Assembly: GCA_963823335.1 (NCBI GenBank)
Contig: CAWGLD010000001.1
Location: 256,001-320,000 of the forward strand
Source: an uncultured delta proteobacterium
GTDB lineage: Bacteria; Desulfobacterota; Desulfobacteria; Desulfobacterales; B30-G6
DNA length: 64,000 nt
Reading direction: 5' to 3'
The translations under genes were made by a program, and so were the position numbers. A model generated the notes under the pieces. It was given only the letters and a program-made list of their open reading frames with translations. It did not search any database and was not told where the DNA came from. Shown one piece after another: positions 32,758 through 54,947 of this stretch. Numbering within the stretch: the first letter of the stretch is position 1; every line of letters starts with the position of its first letter.

Positions 32758-32781
32758 GGTAATTGCTCCAGATAAGAACAA

Positions 32782-36082: not shown

Positions 36083-36654
36083 AGCGTGGTTCCGGTGTCC
36101 TCAGGCAATCGGAATCTGGATCGATGAAGGAAGGTTTCAATGGCTTCCCGGGTCATCTCCTCTCTTTCACCGACCTTTCTGGCAGGATTCCCTGCCCAGA
36201 TTTCGAAAGGACCTGGGTTTTTTGTCAGCACAGAACCGGCGCCCAGTACAAATCCATCCGGCAGATGCGTGGCCTGATACAACACCATCGACCCGTCATG
36301 AATCCACACATCGGCCCCGATCTCCTTGTCCTGCCACAACACCCCCAGCGCATTCTCCAGCAGGGCCAGCGGCTGTTTTCCTAAATGAAGGGTGTCGTGG
36401 GTGTAGATCCGGACACGCGGGCCGATGTTACACCACGGGCCTACCCGGATAGATCCGGTACAATCCAATAGGGAAAACGGACTGATAGCCAGATTTGTTT
36501 CCAGACCGGGTGTCTCATAAGCCTTTGGTGAGACAATCAACCGTCCCTTGTGAACATGTTTGTGCGGATACCTCACCGCCCTTTCCAGAGCTGCCTGCAG
36601 CTGGTCTTTCGTCATGGTAGCGGCATCCGGTTTCATTTTCCGTTCAGGTCTCAT
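36079..36654 (-). CDS. left-handed beta-helix acyltransferase
   Basis: Hexapeptide repeats, IYTHD, VLGAGSVLTK, WAGNPARK. Confidence 0.82.
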   Translation of the reverse strand: MRPERKMKPDAATMTKDQLQAALERAVRYPHKHVHKGRLIVSPKAYETPGLETNLAISPFSLLDCTGSIRVGPWCNIGPRVRIYTHDTLHLGKQPLALLENALGVLWQDKEIGADVWIHDGSMVLYQATHLPDGFVLGAGSVLTKNPGPFEIWAGNPARKVGEREEMTREAIETFLHRSRFRLPEDTGTTL

Positions 36655-36669: not shown

Positions 36670-36726
36670 AGCTGTTAGCCATAAGCCATAAGCTGCTGAC
36701 TGCTTATGGCTTATGGCTTATGGCTT
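36670..36726. repeat. heptamer palindromic repeat family E
   Basis: AGCCATAAGCCATAAGC ... GCTTATGGCTTATGGCTTATGGCT; overlaps the GSCFA gene stop. Confidence 0.7.
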
Positions 36727-37678
36727 GCGAAGCCGAATAAAAACGATAAAACTGCTTCATGATAAACGCCACAGTTTCCCGGTTGACATGGAAATTCTCC
36801 TTGCCCTCCGCAAAATAGGTTTTTCCCATCAGCATGCGGTAGATGGTTGCCATTTCAAACGCCGGGAAATAGTACACATTCTCGTGTCGGGAAACAAATT
36901 CATCCGCTGCAGCACGTAATGTGGATTTGGAGTTACAACTGGCACTGATCACATCCAGATCCTGGCGAAACGTTGCCCAGAGGTGCACCGGCGAAACCGT
37001 GACAAGAAGCTGGCATTCAGGGTTGTGCTGCAACATCAACGCATGGATTCTTTCCAGGTTGTCCATGTTCTCCGTATACCGGCTGACGCGGAACCGATAC
37101 CTGTCCATGCTGCCGCCTTCCTTGACATAGGGGCCCGAGGGCAGGCAGATGACGGAGCCATCCATTGTGTCCTCCCATATCTCCGTGAGCCCGAGGGTCA
37201 GAATAAGAACCCGGGCGCGTTTCAGCGCACGTCGGCTGCAGACAATGTGGTGGCTAAAATCCTTTTCCGCCGCCGGAATGGATTCATATAGAATAATCCT
37301 GCGGTATGGATCTTGAATTTTACCTGACAACGGTGCCGTCCACCAGCGGATGTCCGGTATGAAAGAAGCGAACGTATATTCGAATATCTGCCGCATGGCG
37401 AATGTATTGTACGTTCTTTCCCAGGCCGCGCTGGCATGAACGGATGCCGGATGTTCCACCTCTTCCGCAATATAGGCATATCCCTCCTTGATCAGCGATT
37501 TGCGGATCTCGCGTGCAAAACAAGAGCCCATGGAAGCAATGGGTGTTTCCGGTGAAATTGCCAAGCCTGTCTGGTCGGGAAAGGAATACAGACCGTCAGC
37601 CGGCGGGTTGTCATAACTGCCGGGCCAAACCTGCCATTGCTCAAATTTGTGACCCGGATGGACCTCTGATTTTGCCAT
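36704..37678 (-). CDS. GSCFA-domain protein (SGNH-like)
   Basis: Literal MGSCFA, LTLGLTE.W, TVSPV.L.AT, SKSTLRA, YFPAFE, HV. Confidence 0.88.
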   Translation of the reverse strand: MAKSEVHPGHKFEQWQVWPGSYDNPPADGLYSFPDQTGLAISPETPIASMGSCFAREIRKSLIKEGYAYIAEEVEHPASVHASAAWERTYNTFAMRQIFEYTFASFIPDIRWWTAPLSGKIQDPYRRIILYESIPAAEKDFSHHIVCSRRALKRARVLILTLGLTEIWEDTMDGSVICLPSGPYVKEGGSMDRYRFRVSRYTENMDNLERIHALMLQHNPECQLLVTVSPVHLWATFRQDLDVISASCNSKSTLRAAADEFVSRHENVYYFPAFEMATIYRMLMGKTYFAEGKENFHVNRETVAFIMKQFYRFYSASQAISHKP

Positions 37679-37919
37679 GCATATAACCCTGAATTATTCC
37701 CCTGATACCATTTGTGAATAAAAATGTACTTTACCATACTCGTATCTGATCTAAAAGCCACTTTTATTCTGTTCTCAAAAATGGAGAAATATGTTAACAA
37801 TAGCCTTGTAAACGCAATTTTAAGAGACCGTGACCTTGTCACTGAATGCAGAAAGGTCTATTGCACCCCTGGAACGGGTTGCCGTCAGGGAGCATAGGGT
37901 CGTATATAAGGATTAAAAT

Positions 37920-38609
37920 ATGCCGGCGGGTCTAGAGAAAAAATCGTCTTTCGGGCAAATAGAACGACAGGTGGTGCTACCGTTCGGGAAATCGATCGAA
38001 ATCGCCTTCAAAAGCATCCGAGTTCGCTTTGTCCGATCCATGATAACCACCCTAAGCCTGGTCCTGGCCGTGGCTTTCTTAAGCTATACCAATGTAAATA
38101 TCGATGTTGTCAACGGCCTGCTCGCCACTGGAAATGACGATATTCGGCAGCGGGTTACCCGCTCGGGATATGATGTACAACCCACAGGTGACCAGGTAGA
38201 AAACACCCCCAAACAGAGATGGATCGTTATTCTATCACTGCTGGTGTGCGTTGTGGGGATCGTCAATGCCCAGCTCATGTCGGTAACCGAACGGTTCAGA
38301 GAAATAGGTACCATGAAATGCCTCGGTGCCCTGGATCGTTTCATCCTGAGGTTGTTTCTTCTGGAAGCAGGTATGCAGGGTCTGGTGGGCGCAGGGCTCG
38401 GCGCACTCCTGGGCGCCCTCTTTGCCATCACCTCCGGTGTCATACAGTTTGGCACCCCAGTCATTACAAATCTTCTCTGGGGGGACATGCTTGGGTCCAT
38501 GGGCCTGGCAACCGGTGTCGGCTGTCTCTTAAGTCTTGCAGGCGTTCTATACCCTGCCATGATGGCGGCAAGGATGCAGCCGGTTGAAGCCATGCGGGTG
38601 GAAGAATAA
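37920..38609 (+). CDS. ABC transporter permease (FtsX/MacB-like)
   Basis: GIVNAQLMSVTERFREIGTMKCLGA; PA..AARMQPVEAMR. Confidence 0.88.
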   Translation: MPAGLEKKSSFGQIERQVVLPFGKSIEIAFKSIRVRFVRSMITTLSLVLAVAFLSYTNVNIDVVNGLLATGNDDIRQRVTRSGYDVQPTGDQVENTPKQRWIVILSLLVCVVGIVNAQLMSVTERFREIGTMKCLGALDRFILRLFLLEAGMQGLVGAGLGALLGALFAITSGVIQFGTPVITNLLWGDMLGSMGLATGVGCLLSLAGVLYPAMMAARMQPVEAMRVEE

Positions 38610-38613
38610 AACC

Positions 38614-38647
38614 GTTACACGATTTTATAAAACGCGACGTTGTCGCT
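38614..38647 (-). repeat. short hairpin repeat family F
   Basis: Minus strand AGCGAC-AAC-GTCGCGTTTTATAAAATCGTGTAAC. Confidence 0.7.
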
Positions 38648-38680
38648 CTTATTTCGAACCGTTGTCAAGGATAAAACGCT

Positions 38681-39415
38681 ATGGCAGTCAACAGCAGTAT
38701 TGTTCGCGTTTCCAAAGTCACAAAAACCTTTCGACTCGGCAAAATCGAGGTTCAGGCGCTGAAAGGCGTGGACCTGGAAATTGCCTCTGGAAAATACATA
38801 TCCATCATGGGACCTTCCGGATCAGGAAAGAGTACTTTGTTCAATATGATCGGCGGCCTGGATAAACCCACCTCTGGAAAGGTCTTTATCGACGAAGTCG
38901 ATATTGCCCAACTGGATGCATATGAACTGGCATGGCTTCGCTGCCGGAAGATCGGCTACATATTTCAGACTTTCAATATCATACAGGTCATGACCGCCCT
39001 CGAAAACGTCACCCTGCCGATGATTTTTGCCGGCGTTCCCAATGAGACCGCCGTTGAAAAGGGTATGGGGCTGATGAATCTGGTAGGTCTGGGGGATCGC
39101 TTTAACCACAAACCCTTTGAGTTGTCGGGAGGACAGCAGCAGCGTGTTGCCATCGCCCGGGCACTGGCCAATGACCCGGCCATCATTCTGGCGGATGAAC
39201 CCACCGGCAACCTTGACCTGACCACCGGTGAGGAGATCATCACTTTGTTGAAACGCTTGAGCGCTGAACGTGGTGTCACGATTATCTCCGCCACCCATGA
39301 TTTCAAAATGCTGAACGTCTCGGATCAGGTTATCTGGATCCGGGATGGTCGTGTGGACAAAATCGAAGAGCGGGAGGAACTATCCATATCCATCGGTACA
39401 ATCGACACACGCTAG
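38681..39415 (+). CDS. ABC transporter ATP-binding protein (LolD/MacB type)
   Basis: GPSGSGKS, LSGGQQQRV, ILADEPTGNLD, ATHD. Confidence 0.93.
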   Translation: MAVNSSIVRVSKVTKTFRLGKIEVQALKGVDLEIASGKYISIMGPSGSGKSTLFNMIGGLDKPTSGKVFIDEVDIAQLDAYELAWLRCRKIGYIFQTFNIIQVMTALENVTLPMIFAGVPNETAVEKGMGLMNLVGLGDRFNHKPFELSGGQQQRVAIARALANDPAIILADEPTGNLDLTTGEEIITLLKRLSAERGVTIISATHDFKMLNVSDQVIWIRDGRVDKIEEREELSISIGTIDTR

Positions 39416-39497
39416 CGTCATGTAGCGATGGTATCTGTCGTTGCCATAAGCATATTTTTTTCACTTATAACCACAAACTCTGTATCGGTGTCATTTT

Positions 39498-42400
39498 ATG
39501 GACCGAAAAAAATACCAGCGAACCAGGTCTAACGTTGCCGACAGCCTGTCTGTCAAAAGGGGTGCTTGCATTCTTCAAGGAAACCTGTTTGGCCTCGTAA
39601 TCACGCTGGCATTGTGCCTTTTGGGTTTGTCGGCCGTTGGCGATGGTATTGCTGCAACCGACTCCATGGATGGGGATCAGTTTTTTAAAGATATTCAGGC
39701 ATTATCCGCTGTTCAGGACAGAAGTACCGGGACCCCCGGCAATGTAACGGCTGCCGAGTACATCAAGAATCGTCTGTCCGGAATGGGATTCGAGATCATC
39801 GGGTCCCAGCGATTTTCCGTACCGGTAATGCATCATCGTGACAGCAGACTCCGGATATCTGACACCGGCCCATCAATTTCAATCCTGCCATACTTTGGAA
39901 ACGCCGTATCACCCCAGGCAATCCCTGCCCCTGGGATAAAGTCCCCCCTGATCTACGCCGGTACCGGTGAACCTCAGGAATATAATGGAAAAAAAGTCGA
40001 AGGTGCGATTGTCCTGATGGAGCTCGATTCGGGCAAAAATTGGGAATATGCCGCCACCATGGGCGCCCGGGCGGCAATCTATGTGGACCGTGGAAATTCA
40101 CCCAACATCCTTTTTAAGGATAAGTTTGAACTTTCACCGGTTCAGTTTCCCCGATTCTGGATACCCCTTGACCAGGCAAGAGACCTGTTTGGGCTCTTTG
40201 AAAATCCAGCCTTGACCCGGGTGGCGGAACAGATCACCCTGACATCGGATATCCGCTGGCAGACGGAATTAGCTGAAAATATTTACTGCCTGATTCCCGG
40301 CTTAGACCCGGAGCAAAAAAATGAGATGGTCATGCTCGAGGCCTTCTACGACAGCTCCATCAACGTGGCCGGGCTATCTCCAGGCGCCGATGAAGCCTGC
40401 GGCGTGGCGACACTACTAGAATTTGCCAAGAGAATGAAAGAAAACCCGCCCAAAAAGACGGTACTGCTTGTAGCCAGCGCAGGCCATGCGCAAACGCTTT
40501 CAGGCATGCGTGAGTTTATATGGGGCTTCTCCGAAAGATCCAAGACCGTCAAACAGATGAAAATGGACCTCAGGTCACGGATTGAAGAAACACGCCAAAC
40601 CATCGATGGTTTGACAACCCTTTCTTTCGAAAAGAAGAGATTCCCGGAGGCCGACGTCATGTCCCTTCTTGATGTGGCCATAAAAGAAAGACTCAAAACC
40701 GAGGCAGACAGCGTCTCCCGCCAGCTCATGCAGTTGCGGCTAGAGACAGATAATTCTGTCAAGCCGGAGGCCATCAAGAAACTGGCGGATCAGCGCCAGT
40801 TGTTGCGACGCCTGACCTGGCGCACCTCTTACGAGAGTGAGAATCTATCCACACAAGAAATGCATCTGCTGGATCAGATTGTTGTCAGAGCAACCGATGA
40901 CAGCAAAGCCGTATTACTGGATATCCAACAGCAATTTGTGTTTATCGAAGATGTGGACAACCTTCGCAGGCATACCCGAGAATATGACCTGGCCGCATCG
41001 GTATCCCTGCATCTCTCGAGCCACGGCACCGGCTTTGGCGCATTCAACTATGGGTGGTTGTACCCCTTCAGACCACGAATCAACCGTGTGTCCAGCTTTA
41101 GCAAACTGGATGAAGCCCTGCGACTGGCAGCCGAAGCAACCGAACAAGAACTTGGTACTAAGGATTTTTTCAAGGATACCCTGCGCCCCAGCAGACAAGG
41201 GTCATGGAAAAATTTCTTTGTGGATCAACCCCCCCTGGGAGGGGAGGTATCGGCCCTGGCCGGGTATCACGGTTTAAGCCTGGTAACGACACACGATGCC
41301 AGATCTTTTTGGGGAACCGCTTCCGACACCCTGGAAAATATGGATCGCCCATATGCTTTGCAGCAGGCCGGTGTCGTCTGCGGGATCATGCAGCGACTGG
41401 TACAATACGGCAAGCTGCACGAGGACATCTACCCCAGAAAAGGCTTTGCCACTTTGGCCGGTAGTGCAAAATTTCTAAGGCATGGAGAACTTTTCGCAGA
41501 CCAGCCTGCACCGGGTACTGTATTGCTTGCCTACCAGGGGCCTGCCAAATTTTATACGATGGTGGATCAGAGCGGTGCCTTCCTTCTCAAAGGTGTCGCC
41601 GACAGCAAGCACAGTTTCCACAAGGTCATTTTAGAAGGATACAAGTTCGATACCCACACCGGTTCCATCGACTGGACCATCGATAAAAATCAGACTGACA
41701 AGGCTGCCTACCGTGTCAAAATGATTCGTCTTGCCATGGAGACGGATTTGAAGATGTTCGCCTGTAAGGGAAGCACGCTGTTCAATCTGCTGGAACCTAG
41801 AACCTTCCGGTATCTGACCAAGAGCCAGGTGCTGGACGGGCGTCGTGAAGCCGAACCGGTTCGATTCTTCTACAGCCGCCTCGACACCTGGTCATCCAAT
41901 ATTTCAACCATTTTTCTCGAACCCGGAACACCGCTCAAGCTGACCCTTTCCGATTCCGCCCTGAATAAGAAACTGATTCTGCTGAATAACACGCCCAAAA
42001 ACCCGCAGGGAACCGGTTACAGGGTCGAAAACTGGCCCACGCTGCATCGTACCGGATATCGCATAGCCAGTGATATGTGGACATTGCTGGTGCCGCGCAT
42101 AAACAATCTGGAAGAAAGCGGCATCATCAACGAGCGTATACAGCAATTGCAAAAAGACGGCCTCACAGCCTTGAAACTTGCGGAAAGCGCATGGAAAGAC
42201 AAGCGCTACGATCGGTTCTTTGAAGCCTCATCCAGATCCTGGGCACTGGCAAGCCGCGTATACGACGACATCGAAAAAACACAGAAAGATGTGCTCTATG
42301 GCGTGTTGTTCTATATCGCCCTGTTTGTCCCCTTCTCGTTCTGTCTTGAAAGACTTCTCTTTTCCTACACCAACATCTATAAACGAATCGCCGCTTTCAG

Positions 42401-44417
42401 CGTAATCCTCATCCTCCTGATCACGGTCATCTACAATGTTCATCCGGCTTTTCAACTGGCATACAGTCCCATGGTCGTCATCCTGGCATTTCTGATCATG
42501 GGTCTTTCACTCGTGGTGACATTGATTATCTTTTTCAGGTTTGAAGAAGAAATGACCCGTATCCAAAGCCGTTCCCAGCGCAGCCAGTCTGAAGAAATCG
42601 GCCGCTGGAAGGCCTTTGTTGCGGCATTTCTTCTGGGGGTCAGCAACCTCCGCCGCCGCAGGTTGAGAACAGCCTTGACCTGTATCACCCTGATCATCCT
42701 CACCTTCACCATCATGAGTTTTACCTCAGTCAAGTCCATACGGAAACATACGCGTATCCTTTATAACAACCGGTCTCCCTACCAGGGTTTCCTCTTGAAA
42801 AACATTAACTGGCGGGATCTGCCACCCCAGGCTTACACCATCGTTTCAAATACATTTTCCGAAACGGGAATTGCGGCACCCAGGGTATGGCTGGAAGAAG
42901 AAGACCGAACCCGTTCGACGCGAATCCCCATTCATTATGACGGGAAAACGTTTGAAGCACAGGGCATGATCGGATTGTCACACAATGAAGTCCATGTGTC
43001 CGGTATCGAAAGCATTCTCGTCGGCGGACGCTGGTTGAGAGCCGAAGATCGGCAGGCAGTCCTTCTTCCAGACCGGATGGCTGAACACCTCGGTATTGAT
43101 ATCAAATCGCCGATCAACCAGGTGGTGACCATCTTGGGGACCCCTTTTCACGTTGTCGGGATTTTTTCGGGTGAGGGTTTACAGGAGCTGAAAGACCTGG
43201 ATGGGGAGCCTCTGACGCCCGCTATCTTTCCCAGAGAAGTTTCGGATGGCATGACCGAAGCCGTTGTCGAGGCACTGGAGTCGGGTGATGACATGCGTGA
43301 ATTTCAGAGCCGCTATCAGCATCTCGACACTGAAGTTACGGTCATTGTCCCTTTTCAGAAACTTATGGCGGTAGGCGGCCATGTCAAAGGTATCGCCATT
43401 CGACCGAATGCACAGGGCTCGAACCAGGAGATGGCCCAGATGCTGGTGGACCGTTTCGGTCTGTCGCTGTTCAGTGGGGAGGAATCGGGAACCTACTTGT
43501 ATCATGCCAGTGACAGCATGAGTTACAGCGGTGTTCCCAATATAATCGTGCCCATCTTGATTTCGATATTCATTGTATTGAATACCATGATCAGCAGTGT
43601 CTATGAACGCAAACGTGAAATCGGTATTTACACATCCGTCGGGCTGGCACCCTCGCACGTTTCCTTTCTGTTTATAGCGGAAGCCATGGCGTTTGCCGTA
43701 CTCAGCGTTGTTTTCGGTTACATTCTGGCACAGACATCGGCAAAATTTTTTGCAGGTACCGCCCTTTGGTCCGGTATTACGGTCAATTACTCCTCCGCCG
43801 CAGGTGTTGGTGCAATGGTTCTGGTCATTCTGGTTGTCATGATATCGGTCATTTATCCATCCAAGATTGCCGGTGAAATCGCCATTCCAGACATTAACCG
43901 TTCCTGGACCCTGCCCGCTCCCCGGGAAAACAGGATTGATATTGTTCTGCCGTTCCTCATGACCTACTTGGAGCACCGCAGTGTCGGCGGCTTTATTTAT
44001 GAATACTTTGCCAGTCACCAGGAAATCACCCATGGCAAATTTTCTACCGGGGATGTAGCCTTCTCCTTTGTCTGCGAAATACCCCCGAAAGAGGAAGACA
44101 ACCAGGAGGACTGCCCTGAAGACCAATACACCTATGATGAATGCCTCCATTTGACATCAAAGGTCTGGCTGGCACCGTTTGACTTCGGCATACTCCAGCG
44201 GGTTGCGTTGAAATTCAAACCTGCTGAAGAAGAAAAAGGGTTTCTTGAAGTGCACGTTTCACTGCACCGCGAATCCGGAGAATCCAACGCCTGGCAACGG
44301 ATCAACAAAACGTTTCTGCATGAAATCCGAAAACAACTGCTCCTGTGGCGTTCCTTTGATGACGAGACCAAGGAGCATTACGAACGTCTTTTAGCTGAGG
44401 CAGTTCAAGCAGATTAG
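39498..44417 (+). CDS. large membrane protein: PA plus degenerate M28 peptidase-like domain fused to an FtsX/MacB-like permease
   Basis: DRSTGTPG..AAEYI, PA-like GAIVL, AFYDS..SPGADEACG; C-terminal NTMISSVYERKREIGIYTSVGL. Confidence 0.85.
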   Translation: MDRKKYQRTRSNVADSLSVKRGACILQGNLFGLVITLALCLLGLSAVGDGIAATDSMDGDQFFKDIQALSAVQDRSTGTPGNVTAAEYIKNRLSGMGFEIIGSQRFSVPVMHHRDSRLRISDTGPSISILPYFGNAVSPQAIPAPGIKSPLIYAGTGEPQEYNGKKVEGAIVLMELDSGKNWEYAATMGARAAIYVDRGNSPNILFKDKFELSPVQFPRFWIPLDQARDLFGLFENPALTRVAEQITLTSDIRWQTELAENIYCLIPGLDPEQKNEMVMLEAFYDSSINVAGLSPGADEACGVATLLEFAKRMKENPPKKTVLLVASAGHAQTLSGMREFIWGFSERSKTVKQMKMDLRSRIEETRQTIDGLTTLSFEKKRFPEADVMSLLDVAIKERLKTEADSVSRQLMQLRLETDNSVKPEAIKKLADQRQLLRRLTWRTSYESENLSTQEMHLLDQIVVRATDDSKAVLLDIQQQFVFIEDVDNLRRHTREYDLAASVSLHLSSHGTGFGAFNYGWLYPFRPRINRVSSFSKLDEALRLAAEATEQELGTKDFFKDTLRPSRQGSWKNFFVDQPPLGGEVSALAGYHGLSLVTTHDARSFWGTASDTLENMDRPYALQQAGVVCGIMQRLVQYGKLHEDIYPRKGFATLAGSAKFLRHGELFADQPAPGTVLLAYQGPAKFYTMVDQSGAFLLKGVADSKHSFHKVILEGYKFDTHTGSIDWTIDKNQTDKAAYRVKMIRLAMETDLKMFACKGSTLFNLLEPRTFRYLTKSQVLDGRREAEPVRFFYSRLDTWSSNISTIFLEPGTPLKLTLSDSALNKKLILLNNTPKNPQGTGYRVENWPTLHRTGYRIASDMWTLLVPRINNLEESGIINERIQQLQKDGLTALKLAESAWKDKRYDRFFEASSRSWALASRVYDDIEKTQKDVLYGVLFYIALFVPFSFCLERLLFSYTNIYKRIAAFSVILILLITVIYNVHPAFQLAYSPMVVILAFLIMGLSLVVTLIIFFRFEEEMTRIQSRSQRSQSEEIGRWKAFVAAFLLGVSNLRRRRLRTALTCITLIILTFTIMSFTSVKSIRKHTRILYNNRSPYQGFLLKNINWRDLPPQAYTIVSNTFSETGIAAPRVWLEEEDRTRSTRIPIHYDGKTFEAQGMIGLSHNEVHVSGIESILVGGRWLRAEDRQAVLLPDRMAEHLGIDIKSPINQVVTILGTPFHVVGIFSGEGLQELKDLDGEPLTPAIFPREVSDGMTEAVVEALESGDDMREFQSRYQHLDTEVTVIVPFQKLMAVGGHVKGIAIRPNAQGSNQEMAQMLVDRFGLSLFSGEESGTYLYHASDSMSYSGVPNIIVPILISIFIVLNTMISSVYERKREIGIYTSVGLAPSHVSFLFIAEAMAFAVLSVVFGYILAQTSAKFFAGTALWSGITVNYSSAAGVGAMVLVILVVMISVIYPSKIAGEIAIPDINRSWTLPAPRENRIDIVLPFLMTYLEHRSVGGFIYEYFASHQEITHGKFSTGDVAFSFVCEIPPKEEDNQEDCPEDQYTYDECLHLTSKVWLAPFDFGILQRVALKFKPAEEEKGFLEVHVSLHRESGESNAWQRINKTFLHEIRKQLLLWRSFDDETKEHYERLLAEAVQAD

Positions 44418-44587
44418 GTTGTTTAGGCTGTAGAAAAAAATGGGTGGCCATATGAAACTCAAAACGCTTGAAACGACCAGTGAAATAACGAAGGCTGAAA
44501 AGACTATGGGGGCACGATTACTGTCCGTATGCAACCGATAGCGACCTAACAGCCTACAGTCTAAGCAACCTGATCTATAAGGATGAC

Positions 44588-46627
44588 ATGACCGACACAC
44601 CCGACATAACAGCAACACAACAGGCTCCGGTTTCGGGAAAGCGTGAAACGCTCTCAAACAGGATTCGCTGGCGGGCTATTTTCATAGGATCCTTTCTGGC
44701 CTTGCTCATCTGCCTGATAACGCCCTTCAACAACGCCTACAGATTAGGGACACCCCTTGGGGGCGGACACTTTCCCCTGGCTCCGTTTTATTTTCTCATC
44801 TGGATGGTTGTCATCACCGCTTTCATCCGCTGGTTGTTCAAGGGCCGCAATCTTCTCACCGGAAAAGAGCTTCTGGTGGCCTGGGCATTCATGGTTCTTC
44901 TTTCAGGCATTGCCTGGACGGGCCTGGCAAGGACCTTCTTTCTCAACTTAACGGCGCCTTACCATTTCGCCACCGTCGAAAACCAATGGGAAGAAGTTCT
45001 TCATCCCATGCTGCCGTCGGGATGGTACCCCCAGAACCAGGCGGCCATCACCGATCTATACAACGGCCTGTCCGGAGGACGCCAGATGAGCTGGATAGAT
45101 GTCCTGGGCAACATTCCGTGGGAGGCCTGGGTGCGGCCTCTGCTGGGCTGGGCCGGCTTTGTCCTGCTCTGTTATTTTGTCATGGCCTGCATGGTCAGTC
45201 TCTTGAGTAAACAGGGGATCTATCACGAGCGGATCAATTTTCCTCTCCTGCGGGTACCATTGCTGATTCAGGAAGCATTCGACAACCAGGAGCTGGGTCG
45301 ATTCTTCAGCAACCGCTTTCTCCTGGTGGGTCTGTCCATACCGGTTTTGCTCCACCTGTTGAACGGTCTGAGTTTTTACAATCCTTCCATACCCTCGATT
45401 CCCACGCTGGTCATAGCAGGTAAATATTTTCCGAAACTGGGCCTCTTTTCCGGATTCTACAAACTGAAAATCTATTTTTACCCGGCATTCATCGGATTCG
45501 CTTTCCTGACCTCGAAACAGATATCGTTTTCCTTCTGGTTTTTTTACATTGCCGGCGCCCTGTTGTTCGGTGTCCTGTCATTTATGGGAATCAACATCCC
45601 GGCCGGTGCTCTCGGTGTGACCTTCGGACCGACCATCTCCAGACCCGAAGAGATGCAGATGATCGGCGCATATGTTGTATTTTTTATTTTTATCGCCTGG
45701 CTGGCCAGGTTCCATTTAATGGATATCCTTCGTATGGGATTCGGACTCAAAAAAGAAACCGACCCGGAAAGTGAATGGCTCTCCACGCGCATGGCTTTCT
45801 GGGGGACCGTTCTGGGTGGTCTCGGCATTGTGCTGTGGTGCCATTTTGCCGGTGTCCCTTTCCTCTTTTCCTTTATGGTCGTAGGTGCCCTTTTCCTGTT
45901 TATGCTGGTGGCCACACGGGTGATCTGCCAGGGGGGCATCGCCTATTTCACCTTGACAGCTGCACCCATGGATGGACTCATGGCATTGTTCGGACCCAAG
46001 GCGTTTACCCATGTGGGTCTTGTTGTTTCGGCGGTTATCCAGAAAATGCTCTTTGTCGACCTGCGCGAATCGCTCATGCCGTCTCTTCTCCACGCACGAA
46101 AAATATCGGACGGCACCAACAGCAACCGGCGTATATTCATTGCCATTATCATCACCCTCGCCCTGGGTATTCTAGTTTCCTTTCTGGCCATGCTCGCTCT
46201 GTGCTATAAATTCGGCATCCGGGAACTCCAGTTCGAATGGGCCAGCCGCACGACACTGGCTGTTTATGACAATCTTTTCAACCTGATGGAAGTCCCTATG
46301 GAATCCAGCCAGTGGGTCATGACCTTTATGCTGGTGGGTGCGGCCTTGATGCTGGTTCTGGTGATCTGCTATCACCGTTTTTACTGGTGGCCGATACATC
46401 CCATCGGCTACTTGACGGCCTACAGTTCCGCCATGTGGTATCTGTGGTTCTGTTTCTTTATCGGCTGGCTTTGCAATGCACTTTGCATGCGCTACGGTGG
46501 CGTCATGCTTTACAAAAAAGTGCGCTATTTTTTCATTGGGCTCATTATCGGGGATTTCCTGATGGCAGGAACCTGGGCCATCTATGGCCTCTTCAGCGAC
46601 GCAAGCTATAACGTGATGCCGATATAA
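44588..46627 (+). CDS. polytopic membrane protein (DUF6785/DUF6784-like, OPT-related)
   Basis: Very hydrophobic 679 aa; ERINFPL, WWPIHPIGY, RYGG...Y....FFIGLIIG. Confidence 0.75.
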   Translation: MTDTPDITATQQAPVSGKRETLSNRIRWRAIFIGSFLALLICLITPFNNAYRLGTPLGGGHFPLAPFYFLIWMVVITAFIRWLFKGRNLLTGKELLVAWAFMVLLSGIAWTGLARTFFLNLTAPYHFATVENQWEEVLHPMLPSGWYPQNQAAITDLYNGLSGGRQMSWIDVLGNIPWEAWVRPLLGWAGFVLLCYFVMACMVSLLSKQGIYHERINFPLLRVPLLIQEAFDNQELGRFFSNRFLLVGLSIPVLLHLLNGLSFYNPSIPSIPTLVIAGKYFPKLGLFSGFYKLKIYFYPAFIGFAFLTSKQISFSFWFFYIAGALLFGVLSFMGINIPAGALGVTFGPTISRPEEMQMIGAYVVFFIFIAWLARFHLMDILRMGFGLKKETDPESEWLSTRMAFWGTVLGGLGIVLWCHFAGVPFLFSFMVVGALFLFMLVATRVICQGGIAYFTLTAAPMDGLMALFGPKAFTHVGLVVSAVIQKMLFVDLRESLMPSLLHARKISDGTNSNRRIFIAIIITLALGILVSFLAMLALCYKFGIRELQFEWASRTTLAVYDNLFNLMEVPMESSQWVMTFMLVGAALMLVLVICYHRFYWWPIHPIGYLTAYSSAMWYLWFCFFIGWLCNALCMRYGGVMLYKKVRYFFIGLIIGDFLMAGTWAIYGLFSDASYNVMPI

Positions 46628-46630
46628 AGA

Positions 46631-46730
46631 AGGGTTCAAGGGTCCGAGGGTGATACAAGGGTGCGAGGGTAGCTAACAGCTACAAGCGGACAGCAGCGTC
46701 CCAACATTCAAGGATTCCAGGGTCCAAGGA
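46631..46730 (+). repeat. G-rich intergenic repeat family D
   Basis: AGGGTTCAAGGGTCCGAGGGTGATACAAGGGTGCGAGGGTAGCTAACAGC plus a degenerate tail. Confidence 0.78.
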
Positions 46731-46832
46731 AAATACTTTCAGTTACAAAGAAAGAAAGGTTGTAAACAATCTTACGAATTGAGAAAAAGGGGCTACTAAC
46801 GAGCATAAGCCGGCAAACTTTTCACCCTCAAT

Positions 46833-46865
46833 AGCGACCTAGTCGCGTTTGATAAAATCGCGAAG
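46833..46865 (+). repeat. short hairpin repeat family F
   Basis: AGCGAC-CTA-GTCGCGTTTGATAAAATCGCGAAG. Confidence 0.7.
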
Positions 46866-46872
46866 TGATTTT

Positions 46873-48834
46873 ATGTACGAAGACAAAGAACTCCAGGAAT
46901 ACAGAGATCTTCTCAAGACACCGGATCATTTTGAAGAAGGATTCAGCTGGAAAACGGTAGTGGGCTCCATCTTCATCGGCTTCCTCATGATGCCCGGCAG
47001 CATGTACCTGCAGCTGGTGATCGGTCAAGGCATCGGTCCGGCAGCACGATGGGTAACAATCATCCTGTTTGCTGAACTGGCCAAGCGTTCCTACAGCGAA
47101 TTGAAACAGCAGGAGATTTTTCTGCTTTACTATATGGCCGGCGCCGCGCTGGCGACACCCTTCCAGGGACTCCTGTGGAGCCAGTACCTGGTTCAATCGG
47201 ATGCCGCCCGTATGTTGGGTCTCACCGAATTCATCCCCACCTGGATCGCGCCCAGCCTCGACTCCGAGTCCCTGATGCAGCGTACCTTTTTCCATCGGGA
47301 CTGGATGATTCCGATCCTGTTGCTCGTGGGCACACAGATCATTCAACGTATCGACCAGTTCGGTCTGGGATACGCCCTTTACCGCATCACGAGTGATGTG
47401 GAAAAACTTCCCTTCCCCATGGCCCCGGTAGCTGCCCTGGGAACCATGGCCCTGGCCGAGTCTACGGAAGAAAGAAAGAAAAGCTGGAAATGGCGGGTCT
47501 TTTCCATCGGTGGTGTCATTGGTCTGGCTTTTGGGGCCATCTATGTGGTTCTCCCTACCCTCAGCGGCCTGATTCTGATGGAGCCAATCCGTCTGATCCC
47601 CATCCCCTGGATTGAGCTGACCGGACATACAGAGGACTTTCTCCCTGCGGTAGCCACCGGTATTCAACTCGATCTGGGTCTCGTTTTTATCGGCATGGTG
47701 CTGCCGTTCTGGGCGGTTATCGGCGGTCTGGTGGGTCTGCTCATCACCATAGCAGCAAACCCGGCCCTGCACCATTTCGGTATTCTTACGCGTTGGCATC
47801 CGGGAATGGAAACCGTCGATACCGTATTTGCCAACAACTTCGACTTTTACTTGAGCTTCAGTATCGGTCTGGGCCTTTCTATCGCTCTTATCGGCATCTG
47901 GCACGTGATACGCTCCTTTAAAAAAAGCTCAACACAACAGCGCGGGACACTCAAGGACCTGTTTCATCCACCTCCTGGCCGGGGTGATTTTAACTTCTGG
48001 ATCTCCATCGGAATCTATGTGTTTTCAACTTCTTGCTATGTTTTATTGTGCGTCTGGCTGGTACCCAATTTCCCCTGGATCTTTTTTCTCTTGTATGGAT
48101 TTATCTACACACCCATCGTGTCCTACATCACCGCCCGGATGGAAGGAATCGCCGGGCAGTTTGTAAGTCTTCCTCTGGTTCGGGAAGCCAGTTTTATCAT
48201 GGGTGCCAAATACTTCGGCTACCAGGGAATTGAAATATGGTATGCCCCTATTCCGATTCATAACTACGGCGAAGCCACCGTCAACTTCCGCCAGATCGAA
48301 CTTACCGGAACCAGTATCCGCGGTATCATCAAATCGGAAATCGTCGTCTTTCCGGTGGTCATGACGGCCAGTCTGCTATTTTCACAATTTATCTGGCGGC
48401 TGGCCCCCATACCGTCCAATGCCTACCCCTATGCCCAGGAGCTGTGGCATCTGCAGGCCCTCAACACACTTCTGATGCAGACATCCACCCTGGAAGGCAA
48501 CTCCCTGTTCTATCAAGCGCTAAACTGGATCTATGTGGTGGCCGGCATGGGTCTGGGTGTCGTCACCTATTCCATCCTGATCATGATGGGACTCCCCATA
48601 CTGCTGGTGTATGGTATGGTTCGCGGACTGGGGCAAAGCACCCCCCACGGTCTGATCCTTGAAGTTATCGGCGCACTATTGGGGCGCTTCTATTTCTATA
48701 AGCGTTACGGCAGCATGTGGCGACAATACGCACCAGTTCTACTGGCGGGTTTTTCCTGTGGTATGGGACTGACCGGTATGTTCGCCATGGGAATTACCCT
48801 TATTCTCAAATCACTGGGGCGGCTGGCTTACTAG
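46873..48834 (+). CDS. OPT/YSL-like oligopeptide-transporter-family membrane protein
   Basis: Start at MYEDKEL; hydrophobic; DVEKLPFP motif (compare the OPT ExLxFP motif), APIPS.AYP. Confidence 0.75.
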   Translation: MYEDKELQEYRDLLKTPDHFEEGFSWKTVVGSIFIGFLMMPGSMYLQLVIGQGIGPAARWVTIILFAELAKRSYSELKQQEIFLLYYMAGAALATPFQGLLWSQYLVQSDAARMLGLTEFIPTWIAPSLDSESLMQRTFFHRDWMIPILLLVGTQIIQRIDQFGLGYALYRITSDVEKLPFPMAPVAALGTMALAESTEERKKSWKWRVFSIGGVIGLAFGAIYVVLPTLSGLILMEPIRLIPIPWIELTGHTEDFLPAVATGIQLDLGLVFIGMVLPFWAVIGGLVGLLITIAANPALHHFGILTRWHPGMETVDTVFANNFDFYLSFSIGLGLSIALIGIWHVIRSFKKSSTQQRGTLKDLFHPPPGRGDFNFWISIGIYVFSTSCYVLLCVWLVPNFPWIFFLLYGFIYTPIVSYITARMEGIAGQFVSLPLVREASFIMGAKYFGYQGIEIWYAPIPIHNYGEATVNFRQIELTGTSIRGIIKSEIVVFPVVMTASLLFSQFIWRLAPIPSNAYPYAQELWHLQALNTLLMQTSTLEGNSLFYQALNWIYVVAGMGLGVVTYSILIMMGLPILLVYGMVRGLGQSTPHGLILEVIGALLGRFYFYKRYGSMWRQYAPVLLAGFSCGMGLTGMFAMGITLILKSLGRLAY

Positions 48835-48883
48835 AAGCCAATCATTCCTGGTTTAAAATGAGAGCTATCAAAAGGATCAGCAC

Positions 48884-49300
48884 ATGTCACTTTCACGATA
48901 TGAAATCGAAAAGGCCTTAAAAAAATGGAATCTCGCCTGGGATAATCATGACCTCGAAGGAGTTATGGACCTCTTTCATGAAGAGGTCGTTTTTGACAGT
49001 TGGACAGGTGGATGCGTTAGAGGAAAGGAGGCTCTCAAAAAAGCATGGAAACCCTGGTTTGCCAACCACGGAAATTTCCGCTTTATAGAAGAAGAAACAT
49101 TCATCGATGAAAAAGAGCAAAAAGTTCTTTACCGCTGGTTACTTGAATGGCCTTCTTTTGAAAAAGGAAATGAGGGAAAACCTGAAAAACGAAGAGGCGT
49201 CGATATAATTCATTTTAAAGACCGCAAGATAATTAATAAATTTACCTATTCAAAGACCTCTATTGAGATCGATGGGAAAAGGCACTCGCTTCACATATAG
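48884..49300 (+). CDS. SnoaL/NTF2-like protein
   Basis: AWDNHDLEGVM.LF.E.V, RGKEAL, GVDIIHF.D.KI. Confidence 0.8.
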   Translation: MSLSRYEIEKALKKWNLAWDNHDLEGVMDLFHEEVVFDSWTGGCVRGKEALKKAWKPWFANHGNFRFIEEETFIDEKEQKVLYRWLLEWPSFEKGNEGKPEKRRGVDIIHFKDRKIINKFTYSKTSIEIDGKRHSLHI

Positions 49301-49398
49301 GATAGACAGCAATCGAGAAGTTGGGAGGGTTTTCCAGCAACACCTTAGTCAGCTTTGCAAAAACATTTTTTTTCACTTCATTAATTTAGGAGGTCGAT

Positions 49399-49695
49399 AT
49401 GAATGTCAAAGTTTTAATCAAAAGGACGGTTCCAAAAGAAAAATCCAGGGAAATGTTAAAGTTGTTTAAGGAGATGAGATCGTTGGCGACAGGTCTGGAT
49501 GGGTACATTTCTGGTGAAACCTTGAAAAGTAGTGACCGACTCGATGTTTTTCTGGTCATAAGCACATGGGCATCGTCAAACGATTGGGAAAATTGGCTTA
49601 AGAACAAGGAAAGACAGAAGATTCAAGGCAAAATTGATGCTCTGCTGGGGGGCAAAACATCCTACGAAATATTTCAATATGGCTTAAGAGAATGA
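49399..49695 (+). CDS. antibiotic biosynthesis monooxygenase (ABM) domain protein
   Basis: GYISGETL, LVISTW.S..DW..W; AGGAGG RBS. Confidence 0.85.
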   Translation: MNVKVLIKRTVPKEKSREMLKLFKEMRSLATGLDGYISGETLKSSDRLDVFLVISTWASSNDWENWLKNKERQKIQGKIDALLGGKTSYEIFQYGLRE

Positions 49696-49869
49696 TGTTC
49701 ACAGAAACATTGTAAATCGTAATTAAGTTCTCAGAAAAAACACATCAGGCACCGGAAGCGTGACTGCCTATGTACCCGATGGCGTCGATGAATGCAATCT
49801 GGGATTTTATATTGCGCTCACTCGGCAAACCGGAAGTGGTGGTGGTTTATTTTTTCTACAAGTCCCTAA

Positions 49870-50412
49870 ATGATGAAACTTGTTCGCGGCCTTATACTTT
49901 CTATGTTGGTTATTTACGCCTTGCAAGGCCTAAGCTACGGCAGTTCTGATTTTTATAAGCTGATAGATATAGATGACCCAGTTTCGTTTCAAGATGATGC
50001 CATCTACTTTCAACATGTAACACCCCTTTCCAATATACAAACATCCTCATTTTCAGAGGATAAAAGCGCATTGGATATGGGCTTTCTGCATAAATATTTG
50101 GGGTACGGTACACTTCTTTTGGCCGGCGTGGCTGCGGCGACGGGATCCGACAGCTCAATTCACCATTATTCAGCGATGGGATCAGCTACTTTTGGTATAA
50201 TGACCCTGGCAACCGGTTACCATGAATATGGGGATATGTTTGAGATTGATGAAGGTTTTTCAAAATATAACCTTCATATCGCATTGGGAACACTTGGTGC
50301 CCTTGGATTTGCCACGGAAGCCATTATCGCCAACACCGATTCGGATCATGGCGGTCTGGGCATAGGATCTGCCATTGTAATGGGAGCCGCCTTGATTGTC
50401 ATTGTCTGGTAA
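49870..50412 (+). CDS. hypothetical membrane protein with His-containing helices
   Basis: Signal-like N-terminus; four hydrophobic segments each starting near a His (LHKY, IHHY, LHIA, DHGG). Confidence 0.65.
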   Translation: MMKLVRGLILSMLVIYALQGLSYGSSDFYKLIDIDDPVSFQDDAIYFQHVTPLSNIQTSSFSEDKSALDMGFLHKYLGYGTLLLAGVAAATGSDSSIHHYSAMGSATFGIMTLATGYHEYGDMFEIDEGFSKYNLHIALGTLGALGFATEAIIANTDSDHGGLGIGSAIVMGAALIVIVW

Positions 50413-50507
50413 TAATTCATCAAAACCATAATAGACACGTTTGCGTCACCAGATCCAAAAAGGATGCCTAACGACACAATTTTATTTTCAGCCCGCCGGA
50501 GGAAGAT

Positions 50508-51068
50508 ATGCAAGGCTTTAAATCGTATACGATGCTGTTCTTGTTGATACTTGTCCAAGGTTGCTCGAATGTAATTGTCAGCCAGGATTATCCGCTCAGT
50601 ACCGATTACTCGGCTTTGAAAACATATGCCTGGCAGTCTGAACATCAAGAGAAAACGGGCGATCTCAGACTGGACAACCCGCTTCTGGATGTGCGCATCC
50701 GTCGCGCGATTGATACATCATTGCTGGAAAAAGGTTATCGGCAGGTTTCTGACATGCAGCCTGATTTTTACATTGCCTACCACCAGGAAATTTACAACCG
50801 CATCACTGTAGATCAAAACAGGTCCGGATTTGCATTTGGTATGGGAAGTACTGGTTACCATGGCGGGATCGGTCTCAGTACAGGAAGCAACACCGGCAGT
50901 TATGACGACAACATGCTGGTGATCAATGTGATCGATTCAGGAAATGGCGGCATTCTTTGGCGGGGGACCGCTACCCGTTCCTTTTTGCAGCACACTGACC
51001 CGGAAAAATTAACCAAACGGGTCAACGAAACCGTTAATAAAATATTAAAACAGTTCCCGCCCCAGTAA
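50508..51068 (+). CDS. DUF4136 lipoprotein
   Basis: Lipobox-like VQGC, KTYAW, L.EKGY, LWRG, IL.QFPP. Confidence 0.82.
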   Translation: MQGFKSYTMLFLLILVQGCSNVIVSQDYPLSTDYSALKTYAWQSEHQEKTGDLRLDNPLLDVRIRRAIDTSLLEKGYRQVSDMQPDFYIAYHQEIYNRITVDQNRSGFAFGMGSTGYHGGIGLSTGSNTGSYDDNMLVINVIDSGNGGILWRGTATRSFLQHTDPEKLTKRVNETVNKILKQFPPQ

Positions 51069-51121
51069 AAATAAATCGTTCTGGAGCAGTACTATGAAGC
51101 CTCGCTATAAAAGGAATTCAG

Positions 51122-52075
51122 GTGGATATCCGTCTTTGCAACAAGATCATTGAAAATATATCCCGTGTGATTGTCGGCAGGGATCAAGCCATCGAATTGC
51201 TACTGATCACCCTCATGGCAGAAGGCCACGTGCTGCTGGAGGATGTACCGGGTGTGGCCAAGACGCTGCTGGCGAAATCCCTGGCAAAAAGTATCGGCGG
51301 CACCTTCAACCGGGTGCAGTTTACACCGGATCTCATGCCCACCGATATCACCGGCTTCAATGTCTATGATCAGCAGTCGGCCTGCTTCTCTTTTCGCCCG
51401 GGGCCGGTCATAACCCACATTCTGCTGGCCGACGAAATCAACCGCACCATACCACGGACCCAGTCAAGCCTTCTGGAATGCATGGAAGAACGCCAGGTGA
51501 CAGTGGATGGGAAAACCCATCTGCTTCCCAGCCCTTTTTTTGTCATGGCCACCCAGAATCCCATTGAACTGGAAGGCACTTTCCCCCTGCCCGAAGCTCA
51601 GTTGGACAGATTTCTGTTGAAAACCCGGCTGGGATATCCTGACAAGCAAGAAGAAATTCAGATTCTCCAACGTTTCCAGCAGACAGACCCTCTCCAGGAA
51701 CTTATGCCTGTGACAACCCCTGAAGAAGTCAGCCGATTACAGCGGGACCGCAGAAACATCATCGTTTCAGGACCTGTCCGGGAATATATCACCGATATTG
51801 TTCGGGCCACACGCAATCACAAGGCAATTCAATTCGGCGCCAGCCCCCGGGGCTCTCTGGGCTTGATGCGGGCTGGACAAGCCCTGGCAGCCCTGCGCGG
51901 CAGGGAATATATTCTGCCTGACGATATCAAATCGCTGGCGCTCCCGGTTCTCACCCACCGGCTGATCCTTAAGGAGCAAGACCGGCTGCGGGGCGAAAAC
52001 GCCGGGCATATCCTGGAAAGTATCATCCAGCATACCCAAGTTCCGGCTGCGGCAGGATCGAAAAATGGCAACTGA
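51122..52075 (+). CDS. moxR: MoxR-family AAA+ ATPase
   Basis: EDVPGVAKT, QFTPDL, ADEINR, TQNPIE.EGT.PLPEAQLDRF. Confidence 0.92.
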   Translation: MDIRLCNKIIENISRVIVGRDQAIELLLITLMAEGHVLLEDVPGVAKTLLAKSLAKSIGGTFNRVQFTPDLMPTDITGFNVYDQQSACFSFRPGPVITHILLADEINRTIPRTQSSLLECMEERQVTVDGKTHLLPSPFFVMATQNPIELEGTFPLPEAQLDRFLLKTRLGYPDKQEEIQILQRFQQTDPLQELMPVTTPEEVSRLQRDRRNIIVSGPVREYITDIVRATRNHKAIQFGASPRGSLGLMRAGQALAALRGREYILPDDIKSLALPVLTHRLILKEQDRLRGENAGHILESIIQHTQVPAAAGSKNGN

Positions 52076-54667: not shown

Positions 54668-54673
54668 TTCGAT

Positions 54674-54882: not shown

Positions 54883-54947
54883 TAATGTTTACTTGACGAT
54901 TCTTGTGATCTATATTATTACTGCTTCACAAAAAAAGGAAGTTACCC

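Follow-up and report, generated by a model that had tools for sequence, protein, structure and literature searches.

The window analysed here is a 64,000-nt stretch of contig CAWGLD010000001.1 (positions 256,001-320,000) of an uncultured delta proteobacterium of the B30-G6 lineage (GCA_963823335.1). On its + strand lie five co-directional genes, here named g1 to g5, which make up most of a membrane machine found in bacteria of the sulfate-reducer type and so far unstudied. The first, g1 (37920-38609), encodes an FtsX-type half-permease of 229 aa, followed by g2 (38681-39415) for a 244-aa ATP-binding cassette (ABC) ATPase of the LolD/MacB/FtsE type, g3 (39498-44417) for a giant permease of 1639 aa with an ectodomain, g4 (44588-46627) for a polytopic protein of 679 aa with DUF6785 and DUF6784 domains, and g5 (46873-48834) for a permease of 653 aa with a predicted OPT fold. 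Both the list of open reading frames (ORFs) and the Pfam annotation confirm these five genes, which an earlier note on this DNA had listed. They are separated by 71 bp (g1-g2), 82 bp (g2-g3), 170 bp (g3-g4) and 245 bp (g4-g5). The ORF of g5 can be read from a TTG at 46849 (661 aa), but the start is most likely the ATG at 46873, because an ATG is present there and the homologues among the matches listed have 653 aa (118/120) or 652 aa (2/120). Two antisense ORFs on the - strand (43179-44150 and 46828-47904) are taken as artefacts by position alone, since they lie wholly inside the conserved + strand genes g3 and g5. Upstream, a spacer of 241 bp (37679-37919) separates g1 from a divergent operon with glycosyltransferase genes (the glyco operon), of which the GSCFA gene ends at 37678, as the earlier note had it. 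A consensus scan gave no promoter-like site within the spacer; the promoter and terminator scan as a whole was uninformative, with 7 promoter-like sites against 12.7 expected.

The genes belong together, as is evident from both their order and their distribution. In 80 genome loci of g5 (from Desulfobacterales, Desulfobulbales and allies), tblastn finds the five genes in constant order wherever the contig permits. In 44 of these loci, which extend 8 kb or more before g5 and 5 kb or more after it, genes were called with their own hidden Markov models (HMMs), and the series g2-g3-g4-g5 is present in order in all 44, the position of g2 in the operon being constant throughout. The full order is g1-g2-g3-g4-g5-X-Q in 39 loci, where X and Q are two additional genes described below, g2-g3-g4-g5-X-Q in one, g1 through g5 in two and g2 through g5 in two. 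One further locus with a short downstream flank (L061, outside the 44) has g5, X and Q without g1-g4 in the 10 kb upstream. Across the 80 loci, identity to the window is 79-97% for g5, 76-92% for g2, 53-78% for g1, 51-95% for g4 and 44-70% for g3, making g5 the most conserved gene of the set. Between different families of the order, g5 is 81-88% identical, and g3 is 45-57% identical in those same genomes. Such a constraint is unusually strong for a polytopic membrane protein.

Linkage is also kept outside this phylum. A scan with alignment A4 (mid-distance g5 relatives) retained 80 metagenome loci, 20 of them sufficiently flanked, and g3 stands directly before g5 in 19/20 of these loci from distant lineages. 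Their orders are g3-g5-X-Q-g1-g2 (10 loci), g4-g3-g5 (3), g3-g5 (2), g5 alone (1) and, once each, g4-g3-g5-X-Q-g1-g2, X-Q-g1-g2-g4-g3-g5, g1-g2-g3-g5-X and g1-g2-g3-g5. The best indication that the genes share a function is the persistence of their linkage through several gene orders. Phylogenetic profiling over 31 relatives gives near-identical patterns (14-15 genomes): g5 and the g3 ectodomain share the same 14/31, to which X adds G005 and DUF6785 adds G021. The exception G005 (94% complete, 50 contigs), which also has no adjacent glyco genes, could be explained by one assembly gap. As the 31 relatives are kin, the matching patterns overstate independence. DUF6785 was found in 0/14 well-known named control genomes.

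It is very improbable that the genes are neighbours without a common function, in which case a MacB-type exporter of the usual kind would simply lie beside two peptide transporters independent of it. For such a chance arrangement one can point to the linkage being known from genes alone, to the gaps between g3 and g4 (170 bp) and between g4 and g5 (245 bp), which could hold separate promoters, and to genome G022, in which g3 and g4 are ~95 kb from g5 and X. The matching phyletic patterns, a linkage that persists in distant lineages despite at least four different gene orders and the single-copy state of g3, g4, g5, X and Q in this genome all speak against it. The split in G022 (C1:1514430-1517978 and C1:1609231-1614241), a genome 60% complete by marker genes, differs from that in the genus of the window, described below.

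The first three genes correspond to a type VII ABC unit, with the FtsX permease domain (PF02687) in g1 and g3 and a LolD/MacB/FtsE-type ATPase in g2. Protein g1 matches Pfam FtsX at E 5.6e-17, above the 25.5-bit cut-off. Hydropathy indicates four helices and, since helices 1 and 2 are only ~46 residues apart, g1 is predicted to have no periplasmic core domain. Protein g2 matches Pfam ABC_tran at E 5.8e-33; its best NCBIfam matches are LolD (220.7 bits, cut-off 307.75), MacB (213.9 bits), DarD and FtsE, and none of them reaches its equivalog cut-off. The other LolCDE equivalog scores are likewise below threshold, with lolCE at 41.7 bits against a cut-off of 362 for g1 and 18.1 bits for g3. Judged by these profiles, g1 is not a LolC/E. 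The two FtsX-type permease halves, g1 and g3, differ from each other and share g2 as their ATPase. As the earlier note had remarked, no binding-protein, membrane-fusion or TolC family turns up in a Pfam scan of the five genes and six upstream. Membrane-fusion and outer-membrane channel families were not found in eleven downstream genes either, a genome-wide search not having been made, and they are absent among the recurrent neighbours of the 80 metagenome loci. A SBP_bac_3 gene at 55905-56696 lies beside other ABC genes.

Protein g3 is encoded by a single-copy gene and has eight hydrophobic segments by hydropathy. Between the N-terminal anchor (residues 30-48) and the next helix at 932 lies an extracytoplasmic region of ~880 aa (residues 49-931; 39642-42290, + strand), in good agreement with the ~900 aa noted earlier. 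It comprises an M28-like core with a protease-associated (PA)-type insert, as well as a long insert of helices and an additional portion rich in beta structure. Pfam Peptidase_M28 is matched at residues 269-368 (E 1.4e-7, 31.8 bits against a cut-off of 21.3), the match spanning profile positions 6-104 of 193 only. Three extra helices follow (residues 932-1011; 42291-42530, +), with hydropathy peaks at 932-950, 964-982 and 993-1011. These are beyond the canonical FtsX fold and, at a guess, they might serve docking. A positively charged loop connects them to the FtsX module (residues 1060-1452; 42675-43853, +), which consists of helix 1, a putative periplasmic core domain and helices 2-4. Within this module, MacB_PCD is matched at residues 1103-1227 between the helices at 1060 and 1349 (25.9 bits, just short of the 27-bit cut-off), and Pfam FtsX at residues 1351-1458 (E 5e-12, above the 25.5-bit cut-off), the last three helices falling within 1349-1452. 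After the last helix comes a C-terminal domain of 187 aa (residues 1453-1639; 43854-44414, +), which the predicted topology places in the cytoplasm. This tail has no Pfam match and is conserved in 22 aligned homologues, with W537, P540, D542, G544, R571, W579 and other residues (A8 numbering) being invariant.

The earlier note had called g3 a pseudopeptidase-permease, and the M28 site of its ectodomain is in keeping with this. The ectodomain aligns with aminopeptidase YwaD of B. subtilis (6hc6, chain residues 57-318, E 0.019), a range which presumably includes the PA insert of YwaD. At the active site, AHYDS of YwaD corresponds to AFYDS in g3, replacing the first zinc-binding His by Phe. GAnDNGSG corresponds to GADEACG, in which the bridging Asp is retained, and GAEE to AGHA, with His in place of the catalytic Glu and Ala in place of the ligand Glu. 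By motif reading rather than structural alignment, SLHLSSHG is found at the next Asp ligand and FWGTASD at the YHT..D motif with the last His. The ligand set of a two-zinc M28 enzyme (His, Asp, Glu, Asp, His) with its catalytic Glu is therefore not present in g3. These replacements recur in 55 Desulfobacterota orthologues and have their own counterparts in the distant metagenome homologues covering each position. The first His is F283 in 55/55 orthologues and Tyr in 41/45 distant homologues, the bridging Asp is D298 in 53/55 and Glu in 43/45, the catalytic Glu is H330 in 49/55 and His in 45/45, and the ligand Glu is A331 in 39/55 and Phe in 36/45. For the two positions placed by motif reading, the Asp ligand is H505 in 55/55 and Asp in 31/39, and the last His is G606 in 53/55 and Asp in 36/46. 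By these alignments the pocket reads as rebuilt and conserved, not decayed. Canonical two-zinc catalysis by the ectodomain appears unlikely, the pocket being left with either a binding role or a different chemistry.

An ectodomain of hydrolase descent brings to mind an envelope device similar to FtsEX or YbbAP-TesA, in which the motor would switch the ectodomain on a cell-wall or surface glycoconjugate and the OPT-fold proteins would recycle the fragments. Type VII motors are indeed paired with a periplasmic hydrolase or activator, including FtsEX-EnvC, in PMC12646458. Moreover, an invariant His and acidic residues persist in the remodelled site, which leaves room for metal binding or some chemistry, and glyco genes are linked. 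We nevertheless consider such a device unlikely, as the M28 ligand set is broken at 4/6 positions, X and Q would have no obvious role, and g5 is the most conserved protein and is encoded directly after g3 in 19/20 distant loci, which suggests a core part rather than a recycler.

Protein g5 itself has no match in Pfam even at E 10, and none in NCBIfam. Its family is large, with 1019 clusters at 50% identity (E 0.001 or better) among 1.84 billion representative proteins and at least 584 stretches of species genomes, and it reaches Armatimonadota, Lentisphaerota and archaeal clusters according to Atlas labels. Alignment A1 contains 42 full-length members down to 25% identity, 16 of which match Pfam OPT (best E 1.3e-17). 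An AlphaFold model made from this alignment (pLDDT 85.5, pTM 0.86) was compared to the PDB with Foldseek and matches barley Yellow Stripe 1 (HvYS1; 7wsr and 7wst, E 4e-11 and 5e-11, TM 0.66-0.71), with 13% identity in the structural alignment. All other matches have an E of 0.016 or worse and a TM of 0.14 or less. Based on this model, g5 is assigned the OPT/Yellow Stripe fold; the GT-C and flippase folds, considered in the earlier note as alternatives, did not turn up. In the Atlas, the clusters nearest to g5 are labelled 'peptide transporter' and carry OPT on 15-33% of their members. A search among longer proteins found no fusion of g5 to the giant protein, which is weak evidence.

Of the two OPT-like proteins proposed in the earlier note, g5 thus stands by its fold match, while for g4 there are a weak profile match and shared Atlas labels. 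Pfam assigns g4 to DUF6785 (PF20581, E 7e-165, 549.7 bits) and DUF6784 (PF20580, E 2e-36, 124.6 bits), and both domains are matched by 18/18 aligned orthologues; the OPT profile PF03169 is matched by neither g4 nor g5 themselves. Comparison of the two families with hhalign gives E 0.003 at a probability of 10% over 566 colinear columns, in which ER(M/I)NFP of g4 falls on EKLPFP of g5. The shared motif E(R/K)(I/L)xFP noted earlier (ERINFP in g4, EKLPFP in g5) is therefore found in the same columns of the profile-profile alignment. In the Atlas, OPT is annotated on 11% of the members of one large DUF6785 cluster, and DUF6785 on 19% of those of one OPT cluster. BLASTP between g4 and g5 gives no significant match (best E 0.28), and sequence or profile searches of the PDB found nothing for g4 (with an 18-orthologue profile), g5 or X. 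Protein g4 is probably a distant member of the OPT superfamily and a relative of g5. In distant lineages g4 is variable.

The divergent glyco operon on the - strand consists of genes for a class I/II aminotransferase (30843-31964), a DUF2334 protein (31954-32781), a GT28-like transferase (32898-34055), a histidine phosphatase (34142-34759), a GT1/GT4-type transferase, here the GT1 gene (34799-36082), a hexapeptide transferase (36079-36654) and a GSCFA protein (36704-37678). All were assigned by Pfam, the hexapeptide transferase by a weak match. Orthologues of the GT1 gene, with 59-88% identity, occur in exactly the 14/31 relatives holding g5, and paralogues at 32-35% in two other relatives only. 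GSCFA is present in 13 of the 14, with one 29% match elsewhere, while two control genes of the window are found in 29/31 relatives and in a different 17/31. A homologue of the GT28-like, DUF2334 or GSCFA gene lies directly upstream of g1 in 27/44 loci with at least 700 bp visible before g1 (24 co-directional, 3 divergent). Of five further genomes, three have the GT1 orthologue on the same strand within ~3-6 kb upstream, for one of them on the assumption of a shared contig, and in the other two it is far away. That the operon is unrelated, as could be thought from GSCFA being upstream in only 4/80 loci, is rejected by the distribution of GT1 and GSCFA together with the 27/44 upstream homologues. 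The glyco link proposed in the earlier note consequently holds within Desulfobacterota; it is real in this phylum and not universal. As recurrent neighbours in the metagenome loci, X, Q, lineage-specific SPOR, GrpE, FtsZ, rhomboid-TPR, SBP_bac_1 and DUF1559 genes were found.

The nearest solved relatives of GT1 are BshA, PimA/PimB, MshA and the GT4 chain Tll1590 (6kih). Of these, the GT4 enzymes BshA, PimA/PimB and MshA transfer sugars to small molecules or lipids. The GT28-like protein has a weak resemblance to CalG1, MurG and YjiC. From its content, the operon looks like a small-glycoside pathway rather than a polymer pathway, and the link may point to the cargo.

The system is larger than the five genes to which the earlier note had confined it, as a secreted protein Y and two putatively cytoplasmic binders, X and Q, also belong to it. 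X has ~290-320 aa and Q ~125-140 aa, with 42 and 34 ORF matches in the metagenome loci, respectively. In the 80 Desulfobacterota loci, X follows g5 in 57 and Q in 54, and Y, a protein of 204 aa with a signal peptide, precedes them in 51/80, compared to 0/80 metagenome loci. The window contains none of the three. In this genome, X and Q are present in one copy each at C1:357152-358520 with Y just before (L169 8538-10524), on the same strand as g5 and ~52 kb downstream of it, while in other genera Y-X-Q follow g5 within ~1 kb. The distance from g5 to X is 47 kb, 59 kb, 77 kb and 108 kb in the same-genus genomes G001, G004, G007 and G009, and less than 1 kb in G010, G017, G022 and G024. Because of this difference, the cluster is considered to have been pulled apart between g5 and Y in this genus. 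The intervening DNA, which runs to G000:C1:356536 (L169:8537), carries ordinary chromosomal genes. Its part in the window (48835-64000) comprises genes for SnoaL, DUF4136, a MoxR-DUF58-DUF4129 group, a substrate-binding protein, two ABC exporter genes, TauE and cytochrome bd. Just before Y lie genes for a UbiA-type prenyltransferase and a UbiB-type kinase (L169:4717-8128; C1:352716-356127).

X belongs to no Pfam or NCBIfam family. An alignment of 23 proteins shows an invariant CxxC and His, and the structural model (pLDDT 91.2) contains two PsbP/Mog1-like domains. Residues 1-144 resemble cyanobacterial PsbP (Z 12.2, root-mean-square deviation 3.0, 135 aligned residues) and human Mog1 (Z 11.5), as well as SciW, an Eag-type chaperone, in complex with a transmembrane segment (Z 9.9-10.0). 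The second domain, residues 145-293, resembles BT_1490 (Z 13.3), Tsi3 and Tli4 (both Z 11). As modelled, X has a binder fold, not an enzyme fold. Pfam identifies Q as a domain of the PqqD type (E 6e-13 to 2e-10), and in NCBIfam it weakly matches the lasso, SynChlorMet (SCM) and GeoRSP peptide chaperones. As neither X nor Q has a hydrophobic N-terminus, both are inferred to be cytoplasmic. A complex prediction of X, Q and the C-terminal domain of g3, run without controls, scored 0.00 against a mark of 0.32, which weighs neither for nor against docking.

Just after Q, a convergent trio on the - strand (L169:10628-12149; C1:358627-360148) encodes STAS, RsbW-like HATPase_c_2 kinase and cyclic nucleotide (cNMP)-binding proteins. 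It is conserved in 37-42/160 loci, the top matches all being Desulfobacterota genome loci. The trio may regulate the system by partner switching, or it may just be a set of conserved neighbours. A 131-aa ORF on the + strand after Q, at one point called Z, was dropped because the minus-strand genes over the same DNA are better conserved (median identity of 49-67% for the STAS, HATPase_c_2 and cNMP-binding genes against 32% for Z).

A PqqD-type protein next to a peptidase-derived domain and linked glycosyltransferases might also indicate a pathway for a ribosomally synthesised and post-translationally modified peptide (RiPP). Here Q, as a RiPP recognition element (RRE), would bind a precursor, the transferases would glycosylate it, the peptidase-like domain would cut the leader, and the ABC unit and OPT-fold proteins would export the product. 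The weak lasso, SCM and GeoRSP matches of Q would fit such a pathway. A RiPP cluster combines an RRE, a precursor and a modifying enzyme, and of these the RRE-type Q is present: no radical-SAM, YcaO, lasso or other modifying enzyme was found beside X and Q. Recurrent clusters of small ORFs were found and none was accepted as a precursor peptide, though not every cluster was placed against the opposite strand. The commonest of them lie just downstream of Q over conserved minus-strand genes and are artefacts as for Z. Furthermore, X has a non-enzymatic fold, the M28 site is non-canonical, g5 keeps 79-97% identity from family to family, in contrast to exporters of variable peptides, and distant lineages keep X and Q without glycosyltransferase neighbours. 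A RiPP-like pathway is therefore quite improbable.

The whole is best explained by the five genes being the membrane core of one larger machine that moves its cargo outward, to which we assign a probability of about 0.35. In type VII ABC systems, ATP-driven movement is passed to periplasmic domains and the substrates are found in the periplasm or the outer leaflet, as described in PMC12646458. By analogy, g1 and g3 would form an asymmetric permease pair with a g2 dimer, and this unit would conduct no cargo itself but convert ATP hydrolysis into movement of the outer domains. The altered peptidase pocket of g3 could hold a small peptide-like or glycoside-type ligand, g5 and probably also g4 would provide the path across the inner membrane, and X and Q would hold the cargo, or the tail of the machine, on the cytoplasmic side. 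In the outward direction, the product of the linked GT4, GT28, phosphatase and deacetylase-like genes would pass through g5/g4 and be taken up and released by the ATP-driven ectodomain. Somewhat doubtful in its full detail is the more specific proposal of an ATP-assisted OPT system, in which the type VII motor and the OPT-fold permeases would move a small glycoside or pseudo-peptide made by the linked genes, with X and Q as the hand-over station. A low-molecular-weight thiol or a chelator of sulfate-reducing bacteria would then be candidate cargo.

For this organism, outward movement is rated just short of an even chance and inward movement lower; this leaning comes from the biosynthetic genes nearby, from the precedents among type VII systems and from the peptide-type chaperones of the cytoplasm. 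Running inward, the same machine would use its ectodomain as a tethered binding protein for a periplasmic ligand, which could be peptide-like, a metal chelate or an oligosaccharide. ATP-driven movement would then release the ligand to the OPT-fold permease, which would be driven by the proton gradient, with X and Q on the receiving side in the cytoplasm. This is a possible, if tentative, alternative. Members of the OPT family carry peptides, glutathione and metal chelates in a proton-coupled manner, and barley Yellow Stripe 1, the only clear PDB match of g5, is an importer of iron chelates. TRAP transporters provide a precedent for binding-protein-dependent secondary transport. In addition, long relatives of g5 carry an insert of 200-400 residues in one loop, after the position of ~residue 542 of g5, and domains that may bind ligands were matched in the inserts of 7/12 scanned (P0123, P0127, P0128, P0130, P0144, P0145 and P0146): a Reg_prop propeller in four and WD40, PDZ and FGE-sulfatase-like domains in one each. 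On the other hand, we know of no importing type VII ABC system, cytoplasmic peptide chaperones and a biosynthetic glycosyltransferase operon would be unusual partners of an importer, and no regulator or catabolic genes that would serve an imported substrate are conserved beside the set in Desulfobacterota.

Several observations weigh against one machine with outward transport. All characterised OPT members are, to our knowledge, importers, and an SBP_bac_1 gene recurs upstream in 7/80 metagenome loci, which fits uptake better. No glycosyltransferase neighbours were seen in the metagenome loci outside Desulfobacterota. In the three of 20 distant loci with g4-g3-g5, there is no ATPase, X or Q within 10 kb, and for this reason the motor may be dispensable in some cases, or its genes may lie at another site. 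Y-X-Q are remote from g5 in this genome, HMM-to-sequence searches between the g4 and g5 families gave nothing significant in either direction, and the protein-protein contacts of the machine are only predicted, from linkage.

As for expression, metatranscriptome contigs from four estuary runs cover 25-30/30 bins of window positions 37400-49600 at 95% identity or more, with pieces that span the g1/g2 and g5/SnoaL borders. Because the divergent spacer is covered too and DNA carry-over may have occurred, this coverage is not counted as proof of transcription or of a single transcript. Contigs of three runs stop or diverge in the g4-g5 spacer (46626-46662), where the flanking coding parts match at 95-99%, and the spacer appears to differ between closely related strains. 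Beyond g5, the GC content falls to 0.40 at 49000-49999.

No literature naming DUF6785, DUF6784, PF20581 or PF20580 was found, nor any on type VII ABC with OPT and peptidase, or on PqqD with FtsX and M28, that describes such a system; subscription journals and bioRxiv supplements were outside the search. In line with the suggestion of the earlier note, the literature and families searched thus contain no characterised counterpart. The absence of DUF6785 from the well-known control genomes explains why the system has remained unstudied. Type VII ABC systems expel, extract or activate their substrates in the periplasm, and OPT proteins act as importers driven by protons. The genetic lock between a type VII motor and an OPT-fold permease has no described counterpart, and, if the coupling is true, either OPT-fold permeases could be energised or gated in a manner not described before, or type VII motors would have a further kind of outlet. 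The link to a glycosyltransferase operon in sulfate reducers offers a handle on the cargo, and three cultured strains have the system, to go by their record titles: Desulfatibacillum alkenivorans DSM 16219 (L086), Desulfopila sp. IMCC35008 (L066) and Desulfogranum marinum DSM 2058 (L078).

Compared to known systems, the permease g5 shares its fold with the OPT/Yellow Stripe family (PF03169; HvYS1), of which the profile is matched by 16 of its 42 aligned relatives. It differs from this family in that g5 itself falls outside Pfam OPT, at 13% identity to HvYS1, in that it is encoded with an ABC motor, and in the propeller, PDZ or FGE-like inserts of its relatives. We know of no characterised OPT member that is encoded with an ABC motor. 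With TRAP transporters, the inward model would share an extracytoplasmic high-affinity binder that feeds a permease with a secondary-transporter fold. There is no kinship in sequence or fold, and the binder would here be peptidase-derived and tethered to an ATP-driven motor. Q is similar to the RiPP recognition elements of the PqqD type, without a precursor or modifying enzyme found alongside. The first domain of X is similar to the Eag (DUF1795) chaperones SciW and EagT6, which hold transmembrane segments, but X differs from the Eag, PsbP and Mog1 binders by its conserved CxxC...H motif and by having no Pfam or NCBIfam family.

The closest resemblance is to the type VII ABC systems MacAB-TolC, LolCDE, FtsEX-EnvC and YbbAP-TesA, with which the machine shares the FtsX four-helix modules, with a putative core domain in g3, and the ATPase type of g2. 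As in LolC/LolE, there are two unlike permease halves (g1 and g3). It departs from these systems in having a g1 without a periplasmic domain and a g3 with three extra helices and a cytoplasmic tail of 187 aa, in having no membrane-fusion, TolC or LolA-like gene among the genes scanned at the locus, in being linked both to OPT-fold permeases and to cytoplasmic proteins of the PqqD and PsbP types, and in NCBIfam equivalog scores that stay below those of LolCDE, MacB and FtsX. The machine is therefore a real, conserved and undescribed variant of a type VII ABC system. In logic, its nearest analogues are YbbAP-TesA and FtsEX-EnvC, which combine a motor with a hydrolase-type periplasmic partner according to PMC12646458; here, the hydrolase-like domain is fused to the g3 permease and its catalytic set has been replaced.

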